Positions 20,343-29,537 of a DNA stretch of 48,103 nt are shown one piece after another. The stretch covers positions 11,495 through 59,597 of the forward strand of contig PFDI01000021.1 of NCBI GenBank assembly GCA_002772695.1. Direction: 5' to 3'. The translations under genes were made by a program, and so were the position numbers. Within the stretch, counting starts at the first letter, position 1, and each line of letters starts with the position of its first letter. The notes beneath the pieces were generated by a model. The model made no database searches. It was not told the origin of the DNA and was given only the letters and a program-made list of their open reading frames with translations. The DNA comes from Candidatus Pacebacteria bacterium CG10_big_fil_rev_8_21_14_0_10_44_54 (lineage in GTDB: Bacteria > Patescibacteriota > Microgenomatia > UBA1400 > PJMF01).

Positions 20343-21224
20343 ATGAAAATGAGAAACGTAGGCGCCCACGTCTCAGCCGCAGGTGGCATTGATAAAGCAG
20401 TAGAACGTGTGGCTGCGATCGGTGGCAATTGTGTCCAATTGTTTTCGGGTAGTCCGCGGGTGTGGGCCAAGCCTGGTTTGGACCGGTATTCTATGGATAG
20501 ATTTGTCTCAAATTTGCAAAAATACAGCATAGCACCAGTCTTTACACATGCCCTCTATTTGGTCAATTTGGCTTCCGATAAGCCTGACAATATTCGCAAA
20601 TCCTTCGACTCGCTCAAATACGAACTGGAGTTTGACAGCTTGGTCAAAGGTTCGGGTGTGGTAGTACATCTTGGTAGTCATCAGGGTCGAGGTTGGGAGG
20701 CGGGCAAAGAACAACTAGCAAAACACATTGATGCGTTGCTAAAAGTTACACCAGACGATTCAACTTTTTTGATCGAAAACTCGGCAGGCCAAAAGGGGAA
20801 AATTGCAAGCGATTTGCATGAGATCCGCTGGTTACTCGACCAGGCAGAAAAAACGAACAAGTGGGTGAGCACGGGTAGGCTTGGCTGGTGCTTTGACACC
20901 TGTCATGGGCATGCTGCAGGGTATCGACTGGGTGATCCTGCCAAGATGCCTGCAAGCGAAAAAACTGCCTACGCCAGTATTACAGAACTTGAGCTCTGGT
21001 CGACGTTGCGTGTAGTACATGTCAACGACAGCCGTGATCCATTCGACAGCGGGCGTGATAGGCACGCCAACATTGGTGAGGGCAATATCCCGCAAGAAGA
21101 TGTGCGATTTTTTATCAACACGCCAGAAGTGCAAAAGTTGCCGCTGATTCTTGAGGCGCCGGGGTTTGATGGCAAGGGGCCGGATGCGGAGAATATTAAG
21201 CGGATTGGGAAGTTGATTAGCTAG
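20343..21224 (+). CDS. nfo: Endonuclease IV
   Basis: GAHVS, HALYLVNL, IEN, DTCH, HVNDS and DRHANIG. Confidence 0.95.
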   Translation: MKMRNVGAHVSAAGGIDKAVERVAAIGGNCVQLFSGSPRVWAKPGLDRYSMDRFVSNLQKYSIAPVFTHALYLVNLASDKPDNIRKSFDSLKYELEFDSLVKGSGVVVHLGSHQGRGWEAGKEQLAKHIDALLKVTPDDSTFLIENSAGQKGKIASDLHEIRWLLDQAEKTNKWVSTGRLGWCFDTCHGHAAGYRLGDPAKMPASEKTAYASITELELWSTLRVVHVNDSRDPFDSGRDRHANIGEGNIPQEDVRFFINTPEVQKLPLILEAPGFDGKGPDAENIKRIGKLIS

Positions 21225-21919
21225 TTGTTCGCTCCAATTGGTTGCACGATTGGAGTTTGTTCACTAGGTTGTCTTCCACTCACAAATGGGAGCCATTCGT
21301 AATACCAAACATCTGGATCTGGAGTAAATTTCACATCCGGCGTTGCCGTCGCAGTAGCTGTTGGGCTTGGGGTGTTTGTTGGCGTACTCGTCGGAGTTGG
21401 TGTGTTGAGTTCAAGCAGGTAGCCGTATCCTTGTGCAACCATTAAAATCTCCAATGCCCTGAGCGGATTGAAGTAGCGACTATCGGTGCTTGTGCCTTCA
21501 ACGCTTCGTCCAGAACTCCAGAGCACTGTGAGTATATCCTCTGGGGACAACTCAGGAAAAACCTTAAGTAGCTGCGCCATTATTCCAGCAACACCAGGAG
21601 AAGCCTGGGATGTGCCAGTGAGAGAGCCATATGAATCTTCACGTATTGTAGAGGGAATACTAAACCCGTTCCAAGTCACTTCGCCGCCACCAAGTGAGTA
21701 TCTGTAACCTTGCTTGTTCATACTTGGATACACCGTTTGATTTTCTCCATCCCAGGCAATAAACCCCCCATTTACGCCTTTGACATAACCACTTGCCGCT
21801 GGCCAGATTTGCTGCTCGGGATCTAATGAGCTTGTCAGGTTGCCAGCGAGCGCAAGTATTCTGATAGCGATACTAGTTCTCGAGTTTTCATGAAACGCTA
21901 TTTTACTCCTTGCAGACAT
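21221..21919 (-). pseudogene. C-terminal half of an S8 subtilisin-like protease with Thr/Pro linker
   Basis: AGN oxyanion and GTSQASP catalytic Ser motifs are present; Asp and His motifs are absent. Confidence 0.7.
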
Positions 21920-21946
21920 ACCCTTACTCAGTGGTATATTCAACCT

Positions 21947-22047
21947 TGCTGTGGAACACGGTGAAAGTCCGTGACTGTGCCGCAACGGTGTTTGGGAATT
22001 GTCCCATGAGTCCGATCTTCAGCACACTACATACTGACGCGCATCGG
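21947..22047 (+). ncRNA. Cobalamin (B12) riboswitch, compact form
   Basis: P3 TGCTG/CAGCA, GGAA, T-loop hairpin CACGG-TGAAAGT-CCGTG, ACTGTGCCGCAACGG, GAGTCCGA, and downstream hairpin CTGA-CGCGCA-TCGG complementary to TGCCGC (kissing loop); TGGTATATT extended -10 upstream. Confidence 0.9.
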
Positions 22048-22061
22048 GAAGTTTGCTTTTT

Positions 22062-22084
22062 GCTCCCGTCTTTGGGAGTTTTTT
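22062..22084 (+). terminator. Intrinsic terminator (riboswitch expression platform)
   Basis: GCTCCC-GTCTTT-GGGAGT followed by a T-tract. Confidence 0.75.
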
Positions 22085-22160
22085 GTTCAACCAAGTAGTG
22101 TGAAGCCTCCACAGCGGTAGTAGGTGCAATCTGTTTGCATGGCAAACAGGAAGGAGGAGT

Positions 22161-22883
22161 ATGAGACGCGTTTCCGCTATGGAAAGATACGTTAAGTGGT
22201 ATGGGGAAAAGCCAGAGACACCAGGTGAGCATGATTTAGTCTCACTTGCAAGATTTGTACCAGGCTTGTTAGCAGAGTTACGTTTATTTGGCGAATCTAG
22301 TGGGCGACAATTGCAAGAATTGTTTGCGGTGGTCAGCTTGGGAGCAATCGAGCTGTTTGCGGCTGTCAGAGAACAAGATGCAGCTCAGAGATTGCGCGCG
22401 CTTTTTGGTGAACCACACCCAGATCTAGAAACTGCTGTTCCAGTTGCAGTTCAATTACATTCTGACGAAGCAGTTGCGGTTGACATCGCGAGAGAGCAAC
22501 AATTTAGTGTAGAGCAGTTTGTCGAAAAATTTATGCAGGCTGCAGTACAGGAATTTCTTCGATTGCAGGCTGGTTTAGTGGCCATAGAAGCGAGGATAGA
22601 AGCCAAAAAACAAGCTGTTAAACAAACAAACACCATGCAACTTCATGTAGAAGCTCAAGCAGACAAGGGTGCATTTATTAATTTTACTGATAAAAGACTG
22701 CAAGAACTGCTTCAAAAAAAGAGAGAATTAGAAGTTCAAATTGCTGTGCTTTCTCGAGCATTTTCTCAGATAGCAGGTCCGCTGTTACATACTGCCCAAG
22801 AGCTGTCTAGACAGTTGTTTGTTTCAAAGCTTGATGCTAGTCAAGCCATTCCAGTAGGTCCAATCGATGTCCAACCAGATTAG
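22161..22883 (+). CDS. Hypothetical alpha-helical/coiled-coil protein
   Basis: 240-aa ORF with a strong AGGAGG SD; no recognisable family. Confidence 0.7.
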   Translation: MRRVSAMERYVKWYGEKPETPGEHDLVSLARFVPGLLAELRLFGESSGRQLQELFAVVSLGAIELFAAVREQDAAQRLRALFGEPHPDLETAVPVAVQLHSDEAVAVDIAREQQFSVEQFVEKFMQAAVQEFLRLQAGLVAIEARIEAKKQAVKQTNTMQLHVEAQADKGAFINFTDKRLQELLQKKRELEVQIAVLSRAFSQIAGPLLHTAQELSRQLFVSKLDASQAIPVGPIDVQPD

Positions 22884-22933
22884 CTACTACTTGTAACCTT
22901 ACATCTGGTACGTCATTATTGAGTTATATATTT

Positions 22934-24973
22934 ATGTCAGCACGACTAAGAAGATATCCCGTCAAGCATAAAAGATCTATTCCTTTAGTTCCTGCGCTTT
23001 CCATTTTGTTGATTGGCGGTGGTCTTATCGCTGCCATGTTGATTTCCAAAGGCGGTTTCGATTTTCGCCGACAAGCATCTGAAAATTCTGGGGAGGTGTT
23101 GCGCGATCAGTTTGGGATAGGCTCAAGTTGTGGTATAGCGGCAGAGATGGGAATTCCTTGGATGTATGCGTGGGGTCATGGGAGTAAATACCCAAACTCA
23201 GCCGAGGTAGATTGTAACCGGTCTAAGGGTTTGTCGTTCTTTTTTACCATTGGCAAAACAGACAACGCAGAAAAGTATCCCGACTTAGGGCAATGGGAGG
23301 CCAAGTGGATTTTGCCTGAGGAAGAAGCAGCGTACGAGGCATATAAGAATTTGCTTGCGCAAAGCACGAAGCCAGAGTATTACCCCAATGCAATCGCAAG
23401 CTACGTTTTGATTCCGATGTATATAACCGAGCTTGGCTACAAGGGCGCGTATTATGCTGTTGCCAATGAGCCAGATTTTGAGCCTCTATTCCGTCCCGAA
23501 TTGTATGCTGACTTTTATAAATTGATCCATGATCGTATCAAAAAGTATGATAATACTGCGAAGGTAAGCGTTGGGGGTTTGCTCGAAGTTGCCCCTGAGT
23601 CTTGTAGCAGGCCGCAATCAATTGGGGTGGCCTGCGGACCAGAAGGAGATGCCCGCTTCGCCTGGCTTACTGCAGTACGAGATAATTATCAGGCAAAGCA
23701 TGGCACATCACTTCCTGTTGATTTTTGGAATATTCATCCCTATGTATATGCATATAACTTCTCTGCAGCTGAGACACTCGATAGAGTGGACCAATTTAAG
23801 GCATATCTCGATCGTATTGGTGAGGGAAACAAGAAGATTTGGATTACAGAGTATGCCGTACTCGAACGTGAGGGAGCATTGATCGGCAAACCATGCTCGC
23901 CAAATAGAAAATTGCCTGATGGATCGGTAGAGTATTGTCTTCCTTTAGAAGACAGAATGCGTGAGCAAGCGCTTATGGCAGATTTTGTTGAGGAAGTGAC
24001 GAGGGGATTTATGGCGCGCGACTATGTTGAGCGTTGGTTTTATTTTTATGGCGGAGAAAGTTGGAGCTGGTCACAAAGCAAGACAAACTACGTAGGGGAT
24101 ATTTACAAAGTGCGAGAGACTGGAGAGTACAACGAGATTGGCAAGCGATATATGCAGTTGATACGGGGAGAAGTTTCACAACCTCGTTCTCCAGCAATCT
24201 GTGACCAACCGTGTACCGACACATTTCAATGTACAGATGTAGCTAAAGGTGGTAATCCTGAATATACCTGTTATCGACCAAATGCAGGCAATGGTGAAAA
24301 CAATTGGTCGAGTCAGTGGATAGATATATCAGAAGTCGACACAGTGCCTGTAGAGGGAAGAGTTACGAGCTTTATGAGTTTGACTCAGCCAGATGGTAGC
24401 ACCAAACAATACCTGACAAAAGGCGGCGAGTTGTATGTGAGGACCTCTGACAGTAATGGACAAAATTGGTCTGGATTAATTGGTCCAAACAAGGCTATGG
24501 AAGGTGTTGGGAGTGGACCCATTACTGGATTTTCTGCGGCAATACTTCGCGACGGTCGCATTCGACAGCACGCAGTGAAAGGTGGTGCAATTTGGTCAAG
24601 ATTTTCACCCGATAACCAAGACTGGTCTACATGGGAAGATCACACCATCAATGTTCAATCTGTGGGGTCGGGAGAAATTACGAGTTTTTCGGTTTTTATC
24701 CAACCAGATGGTGTTCTAAAACAATACTATATTCGTGGTGGTGAGCTTTGGGTAAGAACGCAATCTCCTCAGGGAGACTGGGGTGAGTGGACAGGTTCAA
24801 ACGCTGATTTTGATACTGTTGGCTCTGGAGACTTCACAAGTTTTTCGGGATTATCCCAAAGGGATGGTTCTATAAAACAATTTGGTGTGCGAGGTGGCAA
24901 GATCTATGTTCGTGACAATGCAGGAGGTATTTGTCGTCCTGCGCAAAATCCGACTGTTGCCTGTACTCAATAA
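22934..24973 (+). CDS. Membrane-anchored clan GH-A glycoside hydrolase with C-terminal repeat (lectin-like) domain
   Basis: N-terminal TM helix; ANEPD acid/base, NIHPY and IWITEY nucleophile motifs; four ~52-aa repeats. Confidence 0.8.
   Translation: MSARLRRYPVKHKRSIPLVPALSILLIGGGLIAAMLISKGGFDFRRQASENSGEVLRDQFGIGSSCGIAAEMGIPWMYAWGHGSKYPNSAEVDCNRSKGLSFFFTIGKTDNAEKYPDLGQWEAKWILPEEEAAYEAYKNLLAQSTKPEYYPNAIASYVLIPMYITELGYKGAYYAVANEPDFEPLFRPELYADFYKLIHDRIKKYDNTAKVSVGGLLEVAPESCSRPQSIGVACGPEGDARFAWLTAVRDNYQAKHGTSLPVDFWNIHPYVYAYNFSAAETLDRVDQFKAYLDRIGEGNKKIWITEYAVLEREGALIGKPCSPNRKLPDGSVEYCLPLEDRMREQALMADFVEEVTRGFMARDYVERWFYFYGGESWSWSQSKTNYVGDIYKVRETGEYNEIGKRYMQLIRGEVSQPRSPAICDQPCTDTFQCTDVAKGGNPEYTCYRPNAGNGENNWSSQWIDISEVDTVPVEGRVTSFMSLTQPDGSTKQYLTKGGELYVRTSDSNGQNWSGLIGPNKAMEGVGSGPITGFSAAILRDGRIRQHAVKGGAIWSRFSPDNQDWSTWEDHTINVQSVGSGEITSFSVFIQPDGVLKQYYIRGGELWVRTQSPQGDWGEWTGSNADFDTVGSGDFTSFSGLSQRDGSIKQFGVRGGKIYVRDNAGGICRPAQNPTVACTQ
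24305..24920 (+). repeat. Four ~52-aa tandem protein repeats
   Basis: Repeating W...G.G..T.FS...Q.DG..KQ...RGG.LW/YVR unit. Confidence 0.85.
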
Positions 24974-25008
24974 TGCTTGTGTAGTTTCCTGCTACAATAG
25001 TCCCTCCT

Positions 25009-25422
25009 ATGAAACAAAAACTACCTATTATCGTTGCAGTTGTGGTTGGTGTAATCGGTGTTGGTGTTTTTTTCACCCAATTTAGTAACAAGACCAAAAA
25101 CAGCGTTTTGCCAGAGAAAACAATGGACGCAACTGCTGCACCATCCGCGAGCCCAGCCATAGCGTCCCTCTCTTTTGAAGCAATTGTTGATGACCAAACT
25201 GCTCTTGACTTGCTCAAGGACTCCGCTCAGGTGGAGTATGAGGAGTTTGACTTTGGCGTGATGGTGACAGGGATAAATGGTGTCGTTGTAGACGAGAAAC
25301 ACTATTGGGCGCTATACGTAAATGATGAGTACGCTACAGCTGGAGCAAGCGAAACTATTCTCAAAACAGGTGATACTATGAAGTGGGTCTATGAAGAAAT
25401 TTCTCAAACACCACTGGAGTAA
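25009..25422 (+). CDS. DUF4430 / transcobalamin C-terminal-like protein, membrane anchored
   Basis: FGVMVTGING, YWALYVN..YA..GA and L..GD..KW pattern. Confidence 0.82.
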   Translation: MKQKLPIIVAVVVGVIGVGVFFTQFSNKTKNSVLPEKTMDATAAPSASPAIASLSFEAIVDDQTALDLLKDSAQVEYEEFDFGVMVTGINGVVVDEKHYWALYVNDEYATAGASETILKTGDTMKWVYEEISQTPLE

Positions 25423-25900
25423 TCATGCAATTTCGGCAATCGTAGCCGCAGTAGTTTTTGCCACCCGCGGTGGGATGTTACCTCCAAACGTTAGCCCACT
25501 CGGCGCATCTGGCTTTTCAACCAAAAACTTTTACTGGTTTTTTGCCGGAATTTTGGCATTCGACTTGTTTCGGGGCGGCACTTATCCGGGCGTTTTATTG
25601 ACCTATACAGGATTTGCCATGTATCCTTTGCTTGGCCGTTTGGCTGGCAAATCACTGCACAAGCAAGTCATATTCTTGCCACTTGCGTCGCTGTTATTTT
25701 TTCTACTTTCAAACTTGGGGGTTTGGTGGTTTTGGTATCCGCGCACACTCGATGCCCTTATGCTTTGTTACGCCTTGGCACTACCTTTTTATCGCAATAC
25801 TTTTCTTTCTGATCTTGGCTTTTTTGCGACTGTCGTCTCGGTTCGACGAGTTTGGTCGATTTTGCATAAAAGAACCAGTAGAGGATTGGCCGTTGTATGA
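25391..25900 (+). CDS. DUF6580-type small membrane transporter (ECF S-component-like)
   Basis: PPNVSPLGA, FFLLSNLGVW and CYALALPFYRNT..SDL; multiple TM helices. Confidence 0.72.
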   Translation: MKKFLKHHWSNHAISAIVAAVVFATRGGMLPPNVSPLGASGFSTKNFYWFFAGILAFDLFRGGTYPGVLLTYTGFAMYPLLGRLAGKSLHKQVIFLPLASLLFFLLSNLGVWWFWYPRTLDALMLCYALALPFYRNTFLSDLGFFATVVSVRRVWSILHKRTSRGLAVV

Positions 25901-26784
25901 CATCAATTTTTGATGGTTTTAAGGCAGCGCGGGCAAAAGAAATTTTGCTTGAACAGCAGATTGTAGCTGCAAATTTGTTGCAACCCATCACTCTCCAGGC
26001 GATTGTATTTACCGAAGACGAGGGGAGTATGTTGTATACACGCCTCAAGGCTGAGGCAGCGGAGCGAGTTGGTGTAGCATATCGCAAGAAAGAATTTTCT
26101 TTGTCTGATCCTATCGAAGAGGTCCAAGCGGCTATTGCGGCTGCCAACCAAGACTCTCACATCACTGGTTTGATTATCCAGAAACCAAGTCGTGCGGTTT
26201 ACGAGACAAATGCTGCCGCATCGTACAGTCAATGGTGGTTGTCACTGGTTACCCAAATTGCTGTAACAAAAGATGTTGACGGATTGCACCCCGAGACGCT
26301 AAAGTCGGGAACAATTTTACCTGCAACCTGCCGGGCAGTATTGGCGATTATGACAGAAGCACTGGGTGGCTCGCCAGACAACTTGCAACACCAAGGCAAA
26401 AAAATTGCTATTGTTGGTAGGTCGGATCTACTTGGCAGGCCATTGACGCAGCAGCTAGAGCGTCAAGGTGCGGATGTCGAATTGCTCGGCAAGAAAGAGT
26501 TGCGAGCGCGCCAATTATCTGGAGCGAAACTGTTTGATTCTGATGTTGTTGTATCAGCCACGGGCGTGGCAAATCTCATTACACCGGATATGGTGAGCGA
26601 TGGCGTTATCGCGATTGATGTTGGTGAACCAAACCCCGATATTTCTCGAGCAGTAGCAGCTAAAGCAAGTTTTTTTACCCCAGTTCCTGGTGGGGTAGGG
26701 CCAATGACGGTAGTGTCGCTACTAGAGAACGGACTTCAGATCCAAGCGGAGTTGCTTCGCAAGCAAATTGATTATTTGAGATAA
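25897..26784 (+). CDS. folD: Methylenetetrahydrofolate dehydrogenase/cyclohydrolase (divergent)
   Basis: Y...K, KDVDGL, VGRS.LLG.P and TPVPGGVGPMT. Confidence 0.92.
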   Translation: MTSIFDGFKAARAKEILLEQQIVAANLLQPITLQAIVFTEDEGSMLYTRLKAEAAERVGVAYRKKEFSLSDPIEEVQAAIAAANQDSHITGLIIQKPSRAVYETNAAASYSQWWLSLVTQIAVTKDVDGLHPETLKSGTILPATCRAVLAIMTEALGGSPDNLQHQGKKIAIVGRSDLLGRPLTQQLERQGADVELLGKKELRARQLSGAKLFDSDVVVSATGVANLITPDMVSDGVIAIDVGEPNPDISRAVAAKASFFTPVPGGVGPMTVVSLLENGLQIQAELLRKQIDYLR

Positions 26785-26821: not shown

Positions 26822-28174
26822 ATGTCGGATACTTCAGTGCTAAACGCACTCTCACCACTCGATGGTCGCTATGCAGCATCTACGCGAGATCTTTCGGAGT
26901 ACTTTTCGGAATATGCACTTATCCGCTATCGAGTACAAGCAGAGATTGAGTACTTTATTGCGTTTTGTACAACTACCAAACTTGCCTTGTTCTCGACCGA
27001 ACAAACTACAAAACTTCGCAGTATTTTCACCAAATTCTCGCTTGCTGATGCTGAGTTGGTAAAAGCGTACGAAGCCAAGTGCCACCACGACGTCAAAGCA
27101 GTCGAGTACTTTTTGCGTGACGCGCTTGCCAATCTTGACTTAGCCAACTTTATACCGTATCTCCATTTTGGTCTCACCAGCGAAGACACCAACTCAATTG
27201 CATATGGTCTAGCACTCAAGGGGAGTAGGGATCAAGTTGTGGTGCCAGCACTGAAAAAATCTGCGGCAGTCCTGGCTAAGTTTGCCAAGAAAAACGCAGC
27301 CATTCCAATACTTGCCCGCACCCACGGCCAAGCTGCAATACCAACCACATTTGGCAAAGAATACGCGGTGTTTCTCACCAGACTCTCTCCAGAATTAGAG
27401 TCACTCACAGACCTATCATTTGTCGCCAAAGTCTCTGGAGCAGTCGGCACGTATGCAGCACACGATCTGGTTTTTCCAGAAATAAATTGGCTAGGGTTTG
27501 CTCAGAAATTTTTGCAAGAGCTTGGTTTGCAGGCTGATGCACTCAGTACACAAGTCGTTTCGCCAGAAAGCTATATTCGCTACTTTCAAACACTCTCGCG
27601 GATCAATAATATTTTGCTGGATTGCTGCCGAGATACTTGGCAATACATCTCAGACGGCTGGATGGTACAGGCGGTAGCACAAGCCGATGTTGGTTCGTCA
27701 ACAATGCCGCAAAAAGTCAATCCGATTGATTTTGAGAATGCAGAAGGCAATTTTGGTTTGGCCAATGCACTTCTGACACATTTTTGCCAAAAACTACCTA
27801 TTTCTCGTCTCCAGCGAGATTTGTCCGACAGCACAGTCAAGCGTTCGATCGGTGTAGCACTCGGCTACGCAGCACTTGGTTACACTTCGTTTGTTCGTGG
27901 TTTTGACAAAATCTCCGTCAATACACCAAAGACAGAGCAGGCGCTTATGGCATATCCAGAGACTATCACAGAAGGCTTGCAGACACTTTTGCGCGCAGAT
28001 GGTGTGTCAGATGCTTATGAAATTCTTAAAAAAGCTGCTCGAGGCAAGCAAAACGTCACATTGGAAGAACTGCGACAAGTTGCGCTCAAACACGCCAAAA
28101 CAACTGCTACCAAACAAAAAATTGCCAAGCTGTCCCCCACGTCATATACTGGTCTTGCAGCCCAAAGTAGCTAA
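26822..28174 (+). CDS. purB: Adenylosuccinate lyase
   Basis: ALSPLDGRY, HDVKAVEYF, ARTHGQ and GSSTMPQKVNPIDFEN. Confidence 0.96.
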   Translation: MSDTSVLNALSPLDGRYAASTRDLSEYFSEYALIRYRVQAEIEYFIAFCTTTKLALFSTEQTTKLRSIFTKFSLADAELVKAYEAKCHHDVKAVEYFLRDALANLDLANFIPYLHFGLTSEDTNSIAYGLALKGSRDQVVVPALKKSAAVLAKFAKKNAAIPILARTHGQAAIPTTFGKEYAVFLTRLSPELESLTDLSFVAKVSGAVGTYAAHDLVFPEINWLGFAQKFLQELGLQADALSTQVVSPESYIRYFQTLSRINNILLDCCRDTWQYISDGWMVQAVAQADVGSSTMPQKVNPIDFENAEGNFGLANALLTHFCQKLPISRLQRDLSDSTVKRSIGVALGYAALGYTSFVRGFDKISVNTPKTEQALMAYPETITEGLQTLLRADGVSDAYEILKKAARGKQNVTLEELRQVALKHAKTTATKQKIAKLSPTSYTGLAAQSS

Positions 28175-28187
28175 CAGAAAGGATCGT

Positions 28188-29537
28188 ATGCCAACACGAC
28201 CACGCAGTTTCGCGTTTTGTGGCGGAGCCTATGGAGACGAGGGCAAGGGCCGACTAGTTGATCAATACGTCAGTGATTACGCCAAGCAAGGTCGGGTAGT
28301 TGTGTATCGCGACAATGGTGGCTCCAATGCGGGCCACACGGTTGCATTCGACAATACAAAAGTTGCGTTGCATCAGTTGCTCTCGGGCACCTTCATAGAA
28401 GGTGTTACGACGATCCTTGGTAAAGGGATGGTTTTGCATCCTGGTGATTTGCTTGAAGAAATTGCCACAGTGAAAGCAGCGACTGGCGGTGGTATCCCAG
28501 CCAAAATTTTGATAGACGAAATGGCAGTTGTCCTGCTCGACACGCATAGGGCGTATGAGGCAGTGCTGCAAGATTTTCGAACAGGCAATCGAGGCACAAC
28601 AGGGCGTGGCATTTCACCTGCTTATGTTGATGTGTTGTTGCGACATCCTATTCGCATGCGTGATTTCAAACCTTTGAACAAAAAAAAGCTTTCAGAACAT
28701 TATCGTTTGTACCAAGCCCTCTGCGCAGGACTCGGACAGGAATTGGAGGAAAAGGAAGTTCCAACCCTATCTGGTTCAAAACAAAAGGTGGGGAATGAAA
28801 CGGCATTTATCAAGCGTGCGCAAGCACAGGCAGCCGAGCTGGAACAATTTATTTCAGGTGTTTTCGATGTTGTACAGGATGCTTGGGGTGACGAGAAGAC
28901 TACTTTTGTGTTTGAAAAAGGTCAAGCAGTTGGACTTGATGTGCGTTGGGGTGTGTACCCTGATTTCACTGCATCAGAAACGACCTTTTCGGGTATCTTT
29001 TCTTCGACCGAAGGGGTGGTGAATCCTCGAGATATCGAGGTGCGTGCTGGCGTGATCAAGGCCACCTATATGTCGAGTGTGGGTATTCGCCAACTCCCCA
29101 GCGTGATGGACAAGAAACTAGCAGACAAGATTCGCGAAGACGCAAATGAGTACGGAGCGACCACCAAACGACCGCGGGATATAGTCTATTTTGATGTACC
29201 AGCATCAGCATTTTTCGCTCGAGTTGGCGATCTCACACACTTGGTTGCAACGCACATGGATATTGTGTATCCAAATATGCCGATCAAAGTTTGTGTCGCT
29301 TATCTGCACAATGGCAAAACGGTGCCGTATCGACCAGACCAGGCCTATCTGCATACGGTCACGCCGGTGTATCAAGAATTTGCACCTTGGGATGTTGCAC
29401 AGCTAAAAGCAGCCAAGACGCGCGCAGATCTACCAAAAGAAGCGCAGCGCTACTTGGAATTTTTAGAAAAATCACTTGGAGTGCCGATGTTGGCTATTAC
29501 GACGGGGCCGAAGCGTGAGGAGGGGATTGAGTGTTAG
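28188..29537 (+). CDS. purA: Adenylosuccinate synthetase
   Basis: GDEGKG, GGSNAGHT, GTTGRGI.PAY and EYGATTKRPR; start at ATG 28188. Confidence 0.94.
   Translation: MPTRPRSFAFCGGAYGDEGKGRLVDQYVSDYAKQGRVVVYRDNGGSNAGHTVAFDNTKVALHQLLSGTFIEGVTTILGKGMVLHPGDLLEEIATVKAATGGGIPAKILIDEMAVVLLDTHRAYEAVLQDFRTGNRGTTGRGISPAYVDVLLRHPIRMRDFKPLNKKKLSEHYRLYQALCAGLGQELEEKEVPTLSGSKQKVGNETAFIKRAQAQAAELEQFISGVFDVVQDAWGDEKTTFVFEKGQAVGLDVRWGVYPDFTASETTFSGIFSSTEGVVNPRDIEVRAGVIKATYMSSVGIRQLPSVMDKKLADKIREDANEYGATTKRPRDIVYFDVPASAFFARVGDLTHLVATHMDIVYPNMPIKVCVAYLHNGKTVPYRPDQAYLHTVTPVYQEFAPWDVAQLKAAKTRADLPKEAQRYLEFLEKSLGVPMLAITTGPKREEGIEC

Follow-up and report, generated by a model that had tools for sequence, protein, structure and literature searches.

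The window analysed here, a 48,103 nt stretch of contig PFDI01000021.1 from Candidatus Pacebacteria bacterium CG10_big_fil_rev_8_21_14_0_10_44_54, carries a putative adenosylcobalamin (AdoCbl) riboswitch followed by five co-oriented genes: the open reading frames ORF1 and ORF2, the genes for a DUF4430 and a DUF6580 protein, and folD. We consider it probable that these form three separate units lying head to tail in a long co-directional array, and not one designed system. The first unit would consist of the riboswitch and its own target, ORF1. The second would be a membrane-anchored glycosidase with a lectin-like propeller (ORF2), inserted between the other two units in the sub-lineage of G000 and G004, where G000 is the genome carrying the window and G001, G002, G003 and G004 are sister genomes of the same genus. 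The third would be a DUF4430 binder with a small DUF6580 permease that would have to do without an energy-coupling factor (ECF) module, expressed from its own -10 element as a nearly leaderless mRNA and followed by folD, purB and purA. In this genus the third unit may gain a measure of B12 control by transcription running on from the riboswitch, but such control is not what is conserved. The window's genome is 844 kb long and 96.8% complete, and the public labels of its relatives (Candidatus Pacebacteria / Paceibacterota, a lineage of the candidate phyla radiation, CPR) agree with the CPR bacterium guessed at in an earlier, sequence-only reading of this DNA.

The riboswitch and ORF1

The aptamer matches RF01482 with 43.0 bits against a gathering cut-off of 50 in a permissive scan (expectation value, E, 3e-6; model positions 22-99 of 149), and is the sole RF01482 match in the genome. 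We take this sub-threshold aptamer to be real, because the leader and aptamer are nearly invariant in four genomes of the genus (G000-G003), because the aligned leader of G002 scores 55.1 bits, over the cut-off and across the full model (positions 1-149), and because, among 140 genomes from the same taxonomic family, 103 have an RF01482 match, which in 23 of them is above the cut-off. These 140 genomes, searched with RF01482 and a 64-sequence ORF1 profile, are the basis of all family-wide counts below; the tally of 103 includes one match from an unpublished genome (G094). The sequence-only reading, which had placed a riboswitch ahead of the five genes, is thus borne out, although the element sits at 21947-22024, outside the interval 22161-26784 that had been assigned to the locus.

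ORF1 appears to be the direct target of this riboswitch and not an insertion, since 42 of the 46 ORF1-family matches lie directly behind a same-strand aptamer, at a distance of 59-274 nt (median 118). The corresponding same-strand spacing in the window is 137 nt to the ORF1 profile match, or 136 nt to the start codon by the ORF coordinates. The exceptions are a strong match in G041 that is preceded by tRNA genes, with no aptamer found, a partial match in G017, where the aptamer is on a different contig, and marginal matches in G045 and G065 (E about 1e-4), which are probably spurious. The aptamer and ORF1 stand alone in G020 and G024, because the next genes there are convergent, and an ORF1 homologue is kept in all three sister genomes in which the interval is assembled. 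One of two options raised by the sequence-only reading was that the first two genes had been inserted between the riboswitch and its original targets; the 42 of 46 matches behind an aptamer speak against this for ORF1, whereas for ORF2, which is absent from G001-G003, the proposal stands.

The first gene after the aptamer belongs to the ORF1 family in 41 of the 103 genomes, to an unrelated family of about 570-750 aa in 34 and to neither in 28; in no case were both found. Eight of these 28 genomes were sampled. The first gene is about 206-235 aa long in five of them, three of which weakly match the ORF1 profile (E 9e-10 to 4e-8, in a small local search), and it encodes a protein of 508-576 aa with no Pfam match in two others. 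The eighth, G044, has nrdD-nrdG behind the aptamer; here (L148:382-3209, + strand) the riboswitch lies ahead of nrdD, with ATP-cone and NRDD domains, and a radical-SAM activase. A B12-independent reductase that is repressed by B12 is the textbook case of such a riboswitch.

Two side observations concern this distribution. Members of the 570-750-aa family have invariant cysteines, no Pfam match and no signal peptide that we could see, and, in 34 of the 38 genomes having the family, are encoded immediately downstream of the same AdoCbl aptamer (examples are L047:2900-4831, - strand; L049:2232-4073, + strand; L050:3098-4810, - strand; and L051:3207-5147, - strand); no genome has both this family and that of ORF1, as though one could stand in for the other. 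Kinship between the two families was considered and rejected (hhalign probability 0.1%). The second observation is that G088 has two aptamer-ORF1 units (L059:7379-8333, - strand, and L061:1444-2401, + strand), one aptamer of which is best assigned to AdoCbl-II (RF01689), its ORF1 copy being followed by a gene for a 1307-aa protein without a Pfam match.

The leader has what appears to be a standard switch layout, with the 5'-leader position and the expression platform, comprising a terminator and an anti-Shine-Dalgarno segment, that are expected of an AdoCbl riboswitch. The terminator hairpin forms both in the full-length fold and when the aptamer is omitted, and is shared by G000, G001 and G003, whereas G002 has lost it. 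Within the switching segment AGCCUCCACAGC, the part UCCACAGC pairs with the 5' strand of the aptamer, GCUGUGGA (21948-21955), in the full-length fold, and CCUCC pairs with the Shine-Dalgarno sequence GGAGG when the fold omits the aptamer. Since G002 is without the terminator hairpin yet keeps the anti-Shine-Dalgarno segment, the control that is conserved may act on translation, and on ORF1 only. The switch that we predict from these pairings, in its direction as well as its mechanism, is one of AdoCbl binding followed by repression, and would operate as follows: with AdoCbl plentiful, the closed aptamer would free CCUCC to mask the Shine-Dalgarno sequence of ORF1, and the terminator could form; with B12 scarce, ORF1 would be produced. 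The promoter indicated ahead of the aptamer is only a candidate, because a generic promoter scan found 9 sites as compared with 9.1 +/- 3.4 in shuffled sequences and hence no excess.

ORF1 belongs to a fast-evolving helical family of about 240 aa that has no known relative, and is the new finding at this locus. When an eight-sequence alignment was searched against 1.84 billion protein cluster representatives (E <= 1e-3), 77 cluster representatives were recovered, nearly all of 210-266 aa, and a word-index search with ORF1 recovered two proteins, one of them the window's own. Pfam gave no match to ORF1 and, among 64 relatives, no family that matched more than one member; the Atlas returned only unnamed clusters, and family members are labelled hypothetical proteins in public sources. 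An NCBIfam match of ORF1 to the Rad50 coiled coil was dismissed as spurious. The AlphaFold (AF2) model built from 64 sequences is all-helical, with a predicted local distance difference test score (pLDDT) of 91.3 and a predicted template modelling score (pTM) of 0.80, and supersedes an earlier model from eight sequences (pLDDT 67). Its helices span residues 6-14, 23-40, 45-82, 92-158 and 163-218, and the conserved positions cluster at the end of the third helix and in the loop that follows (E71, A74, A75, L78, F82, G83, P85, V95 and L99).

For ORF1 we think a cytoplasmic role in B12 starvation the most likely, as a protein that would help in handling or sparing corrinoid where the only ribonucleotide reductase found requires AdoCbl. 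Two more specific candidates were set aside: a canonical B12-binding or PduO-type protein, as there is no Pfam match and PduO is encoded elsewhere, and a binder that ligates cobalt through cysteine or histidine, neither of which is conserved. It is extremely unlikely that ORF1 acts on the host as a ClyA-type pore-former or other membrane-active effector that frees host corrinoids during B12 starvation. The idea arises from the shape of the model, an elongated helical bundle with a long helical hairpin and a length similar to that of the ClyA-family toxins AhlC, ClyA and Cry6Aa, which in their soluble forms are its best natural near-full-length matches; moreover ORF1 has no signal peptide and, to our knowledge, neither does ClyA. 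These resemblances are within the noise expected of helical bundles, and there is no sequence similarity. Foldseek found nothing at E 1e-3, the best match being AhlC, a soluble pore-toxin component (E 4.4e-3, template modelling (TM) score 0.46-0.53), followed by many ClyA-family rows. The VIA aligner ranked a designed bundle first (Z 11.5), ahead of AhlC (Z 10.6; 196 residues aligned with a root-mean-square deviation of 4.3), ClyA (10.0) and Cry6Aa (9.8), all of them short of the Z of about 13 that the aligner gives as its noise bar where proteins are helical. The family also has no conserved hydrophobic segment that could serve as the head of such a toxin (the 19-residue family-mean hydropathy has a maximum of 0.79, and a value of 1.6 is attained in 6 of 64 members), and no partner components are adjacent to ORF1.

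The glycosidase and the DUF4430-DUF6580 pair

ORF2 is a recent, lineage-specific insertion with no conserved tie to B12. The gene order in G002 is nfo, aptamer, ORF1 homologue (31% identity), DUF4430, DUF6580, folD, purB and purA, and that in G001 and G003 is aptamer, ORF1-like protein (224 aa and 251 aa, respectively), DUF4430, DUF6580 and folD, so that ORF2 is missing at three of the four sister loci. When whole genomes were searched for ORF2, G001 and G003 gave nothing credible, and G002 gave the propeller domain alone, carried by another protein. In G004 the order is nfo, a HEPN gene, an ORF2 homologue with an assembly gap inside, DUF4430, DUF6580, folD and purB; the homologue is split over two contig ends, its N-terminus (72% identity) comes directly after nfo and the HEPN gene, and neither aptamer nor ORF1 was found at the locus or elsewhere in this genome, which is 96% complete. 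ORF2 is therefore present or absent independently of the riboswitch. Furthermore, the last 34 alignment columns before and into the DUF4430 start are identical at 31 positions between G000, where they lie downstream of ORF2, and G002, where they take in the ORF1 stop codon, and a junction of ORF1 stop and DUF4430 that is retained downstream of ORF2 is what an insertion would leave. Synteny had been proposed as the check on whether relatives place the riboswitch directly before DUF4430; ORF2 is indeed lacking from the interval in G001-G003, but ORF1 stays there.

The description of ORF2 as a surface glycosidase or lectin is a reasonable one. Its match to Glyco_hydro_cc (PF11790; 28.1 bits, cut-off 21) is confined to the C-terminal half of its profile (positions 123-237 of 237); a hydrophobic anchor occupies residues 19-47, and NEP at residue 183 and ITEY at 309 are presumably the acid/base and nucleophile glutamate motifs of clan GH-A. 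The C-terminal part contains four GGxhWVR-type repeats about 52 residues apart. Pfam gave nothing for residues 431-684 at E up to 10, with PF26607 and PF19193 considered, and a PDB sequence search with ORF2 gave nothing credible; the Atlas related the repeats to PLL/tectonin clusters (feature score 0.87, TM 0.62), which is a lead only. The start codon is ambiguous, being either TTG at 22919 or ATG at 22934, neither with a Shine-Dalgarno sequence; the Atlas record begins at the ATG. Surface domains appear to be shuffled in these genomes: the propeller domain of G002 (L055, G002:C22) has 47% identity and lies on a separate 768-aa protein, and the G004 glycosidase homologue (L044:52-1137, + strand) carries at its C-terminal end, in place of the propeller, a cysteine-containing module of about 125 aa that is present twice.

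The other option of the sequence-only reading was a single B12-repressed operon, in which a surface glycosidase-lectin binds or cuts host glycans to aid corrinoid capture. As a designed system we regard this as very unlikely, and synteny appears largely to refute it. The arrangement in G000 invites the idea, with a membrane-anchored protein that carries a putative lectin-like propeller encoded between the riboswitch and the uptake pair across 35-nt gaps, and the glycosidase of G004 likewise directly precedes DUF4430. It fails as to the glycosidase, however, which is absent at three of the four sister loci, occurs in G004 with neither riboswitch nor ORF1, and has a C-terminal domain that differs between G000 and G004, the propeller being found on another protein in G002; the persistence of the G002-type junction downstream of ORF2 in G000 also argues against it.

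In this bacterial family the DUF4430 and DUF6580 genes form a separate conserved unit that is usually not linked to a riboswitch, since in 73 of 77 cases the gene immediately before DUF6580 is DUF4430, yet a same-strand aptamer lies within 10 kb upstream of DUF4430 in only 5 of 75 (G000, G001, G002, G003 and G088). In G088 4.4 kb of ordinary metabolic genes intervene between aptamer and pair, and no riboswitch was found at the pair in G014. A linkage in 5 of 75 cases also does not fit the remaining element of the insertion proposal, that the pair comprised the riboswitch's original targets. The PF14478 match of the DUF4430 protein extends over residues 62-129, behind an N-terminal membrane anchor formed by hydrophobic residues 1-27, and PF20221 matches residues 13-151 of the DUF6580 protein, which is a small polytopic membrane protein.

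A -10 element of its own for DUF4430, TACAAT at 24993-24998, had been recognised in the sequence-only reading, and it gains strength from the comparison: the hexamer, located 10-11 nt upstream of the ATG, is invariant in five of five genomes of the genus, with divergent flanks, while the gene upstream of it varies (ORF2, ORF1 or the G004 glycosidase). DUF4430 has no Shine-Dalgarno sequence in front of it, and about half of a set of 22 further CPR loci have a similar TAnAAT hexamer 12-16 nt upstream of the ATG. TACAAT is thus probably a dedicated promoter giving a nearly leaderless DUF4430 mRNA.

The suggestion that two of the genes resemble cobalamin binding or uptake families is supported from two sides. 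DUF4430 is presented as the C-terminal domain of vertebrate transcobalamin-type B12 binders (PMC4350170). For DUF6580, 80 loci were fetched from reference genomes, and the 40 from other phyla were scanned at the curated Rfam thresholds; 23 of the 40, a set whose members are not independent and include many Flavobacteriaceae, have a cobalamin-clan riboswitch over the cut-off within 2 kb. Of these riboswitches, 5 are just upstream on the same strand, 6 are divergent and 12 are just downstream, where they control a TonB-dependent receptor, and the neighbours of DUF6580 include BtuB-type receptors, DUF4465 proteins and NrdD. Three layouts recur among L086-L123 (Flavobacteriaceae and other Bacteroidota): DUF6580 divergent from a riboswitch-led TonB receptor, DUF6580 after carB and just upstream of such a receptor, and DUF6580 first after the riboswitch and followed by DUF4465 proteins. 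We therefore presume that the DUF4430 protein is an outward-facing corrinoid binder and the DUF6580 protein a corrinoid permease. PDB sequence searches with the two proteins gave nothing credible, and DUF6580, used as a single protein or as a 13-sequence profile, had no match at E up to 10 to solved chains, BtuM and CbrT among them. A predicted complex of DUF6580 with the soluble domain of DUF4430 scored 0.00 relative to a mark of 0.32, a value that counts neither for nor against binding.

The genome itself depends on AdoCbl, as the only ribonucleotide reductase found is AdoCbl-dependent. This is a full-length RTPR-type enzyme (237.6 bits as compared with an equivalog cut-off of 340, aligned over 10-723 of 724), and a PduO adenosyltransferase is present as well, both encoded on contigs other than that of the locus; searches of the genome for NrdD, class I R2 and PF02310 domains were negative. 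EcfT was not found in the genome either, so that a DUF6580 carrier would have to work like the solitary BtuM and not like ECF-CbrT.

The alternative with the most to recommend it is a true operon in this genus, in which the riboswitch attenuates ORF1 through DUF6580, and perhaps folD, the joining having been selected for uptake under B12 scarcity, with TACAAT providing basal expression and the glycosidase a passenger. We hold it to be rather unlikely. A terminator is present in the leader, the genes are separated by 35-nt gaps or overlap with no intergenic terminator, the order aptamer-ORF1-DUF4430-DUF6580 is preserved in G000, G001, G002 and G003, and four loci from other phyla have DUF6580 in first position behind a cobalamin riboswitch (L112, L114 and L118 by Pfam, L105 by position); in the fifth locus with a same-strand upstream riboswitch (L120), the sole ORF picked over the DUF6580 match scored as DUF4465. 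An operon of this kind is less easily reconciled with G002, which is without the terminator hairpin but has the anti-Shine-Dalgarno segment, as if control were translational and ORF1-specific, with the invariance of the -10 element ahead of DUF4430, with the presence of the same pair without a riboswitch in G004, and with the 70 of 75 DUF4430 loci in the family that have no aptamer within 10 kb upstream.

Several points weigh against the interpretation as three separate units and against the parts from which it is built. The 35-nt gaps are too short to accommodate a terminator, and the genes from the riboswitch to DUF6580 may be co-transcribed. In each of the four genomes of the genus in which this is visible the two modules adjoin one another, and selection for joint B12 control may lie behind it. 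As to the riboswitch, a scan at Rfam gathering scores did not report it, giving two tRNAs only; the switching bases are invariant and hence without covariation, and the fold lacking the aptamer is no better than shuffled sequences (z -0.38). The ORF1 family offers no conserved cysteine or histidine and no significant fold match, and 9 of 43 genomes with ORF1 have no DUF6580. Finally, the generic promoter scan, which needs a -35 match, omitted TACAAT, whose role is argued from conservation alone.

Layout of the locus

The coordinates of the features discussed are collected in the table. That the five genes are co-oriented, with gaps of no more than 50 nt or overlaps, is true: from ORF1 to folD there are two gaps of 35 nt each, followed by overlaps of 32 nt and 4 nt, and a terminator scan found no intergenic terminator outside coding sequence over this interval. 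Co-orientation alone means little, because co-direction is the local norm: of the ORFs of 180 aa or longer located between 13.9 and 33 kb of the window, 15 are on the + strand and one is on the - strand.

Table. Features of the riboswitch locus and its flanks (window coordinates)
Feature	Position	Strand	Details
nfo	20343-21224		Upstream flank of the locus
Candidate promoter	21913-21940	+	CAGACA, 16 nt, TATATT; TG before the -10; 9/12 consensus matches
AdoCbl-type cobalamin riboswitch, aptamer core (putative)	21947-22024	+	RF01482; closing helix UGCUG...CAGCA
Intrinsic-terminator-like hairpin	22062-22085	+	GCUCCC-GUCU-UUGGGAGU, then U run; terminator scan
Switching segment (predicted)	22104-22115	+	AGCCUCCACAGC; invariant in 4/4 leaders
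Shine-Dalgarno sequence of ORF1	22153-22157	+	GGAGG; read from the sequence
ORF1	22161-22883	+	240 aa; without Pfam match; soluble protein, all-helical in the model; family unnamed
ORF2	22919-24973	+	684 aa; Glyco_hydro_cc (PF11790), partial; membrane-anchored glycosidase with putative lectin-like beta-propeller
Extended -10 (putative)	24990-24998	+	TGcTACAAT, with TACAAT at 24993-24998; 10 nt before the DUF4430 start codon
DUF4430 gene	25009-25422	+	PF14478, 52.6 bits (cut-off 23.8)
DUF6580 gene	25391-25900	+	PF20221, 66.7 bits (cut-off 27)
folD	25897-26784	+	PF02882 and PF00763, both over cut-offs
purB	26822-28174	+	After folD in the array
purA	about 28188-29537	+	After purB in the array

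The folD gene is a housekeeping gene that continues the array, the order DUF6580-folD-purB-purA being common to G002 and G004. Its product is a divergent member of its family, as shown by NCBIfam equivalog scores that are all far under the cut-offs (best 123 bits as compared with 465) while both Pfam domains pass (PF02882, 96.4 bits; PF00763, 45.8 bits).

The interval between nfo and the aptamer is a variable spot, with a HEPN gene in G004, a DUF5674 gene and a 91-aa ORF in G003 and a 349-aa ORF in G001. In the window it contains a 254-aa ORF (21221-21985, - strand) whose subtilase match is limited to the C-terminal part of that domain (profile positions 215-273 of 288); it is probably what is left of a gene, and if begun at its TTG would overlap the aptamer.

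Relation to known B12 systems

New B12 biology has come to light repeatedly through genes that follow cobalamin riboswitches. The locus is like a classical cobalamin-riboswitch regulon in having an AdoCbl-clan aptamer in a 5' leader with a terminator and masking of the Shine-Dalgarno sequence; its relative G044 uses the same riboswitch for nrdD-nrdG, and in other phyla such a riboswitch governs BtuB-type receptors that lie beside DUF6580. It is unlike such a regulon, which governs B12 transport genes and B12-independent isozymes, in that the ORF1 family (41) and the family of about 600 aa (34 of 103) take first place after the aptamer, and neither is a recognised transporter, biosynthesis gene or isozyme. 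An nrdD-type backup of the kind seen in G044 was not found in the window's genome.

BtuM and CbrT were each reportedly first predicted from genomic context, and both offer points of comparison for the DUF6580 protein. BtuM of Thiobacillus denitrificans is a solitary S-component-like B12 transporter (PMC6072759). DUF6580 resembles it as a small polytopic protein of similar size with B12-linked neighbours and no EcfT found in the genome, but has no sequence match to solved chains and comes with a DUF4430 partner. For Lactobacillus delbrueckii, PMC5997447 describes ECF-CbrT and an nrdJ-cbrS-cbrT-pduO cluster. The two cases share the logic of a B12 auxotroph that combines a small membrane carrier for B12 with PduO and a reductase dependent on AdoCbl; here, however, no ECF module was found and the uptake genes are not clustered with the reductase or pduO. 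Vertebrate transcobalamin and intrinsic factor share with this locus the DUF4430 domain at their C-terminus, as given in PMC4350170, and differ in that the small domain here stands alone on a single membrane anchor, with no alpha-toroid N-terminal domain and corrinoid binding that is only presumed. A full-text search, supplementary files excepted, found no mention of DUF6580, and in the literature searched, with the same exception, no paper on cobalamin-riboswitch targets in CPR bacteria was found.

The glycosidase is a passenger, which removes a tempting but mistaken story of glycans plus corrinoid, and the loci from other phyla lend independent support to DUF6580 as a B12-linked membrane protein. 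What remains is a family of ultra-small, host-dependent bacteria that points its single B12 sensor mostly at two unnamed protein families. We suggest tentatively, and at somewhat less than an even chance, that the ORF1 family, and perhaps also the family of about 600 aa, are unrecognised B12-starvation proteins that carry out a cytoplasmic step of corrinoid acquisition, storage or sparing, or act as a brake on replication, ORF1 having been joined to the uptake pair in this genus. If true, this would add a new corrinoid step or a replication brake to the biology of ultra-small bacteria whose DNA synthesis hangs on one AdoCbl-dependent reductase, and the function of ORF1, once worked out, would show how such cells cope with B12 scarcity.

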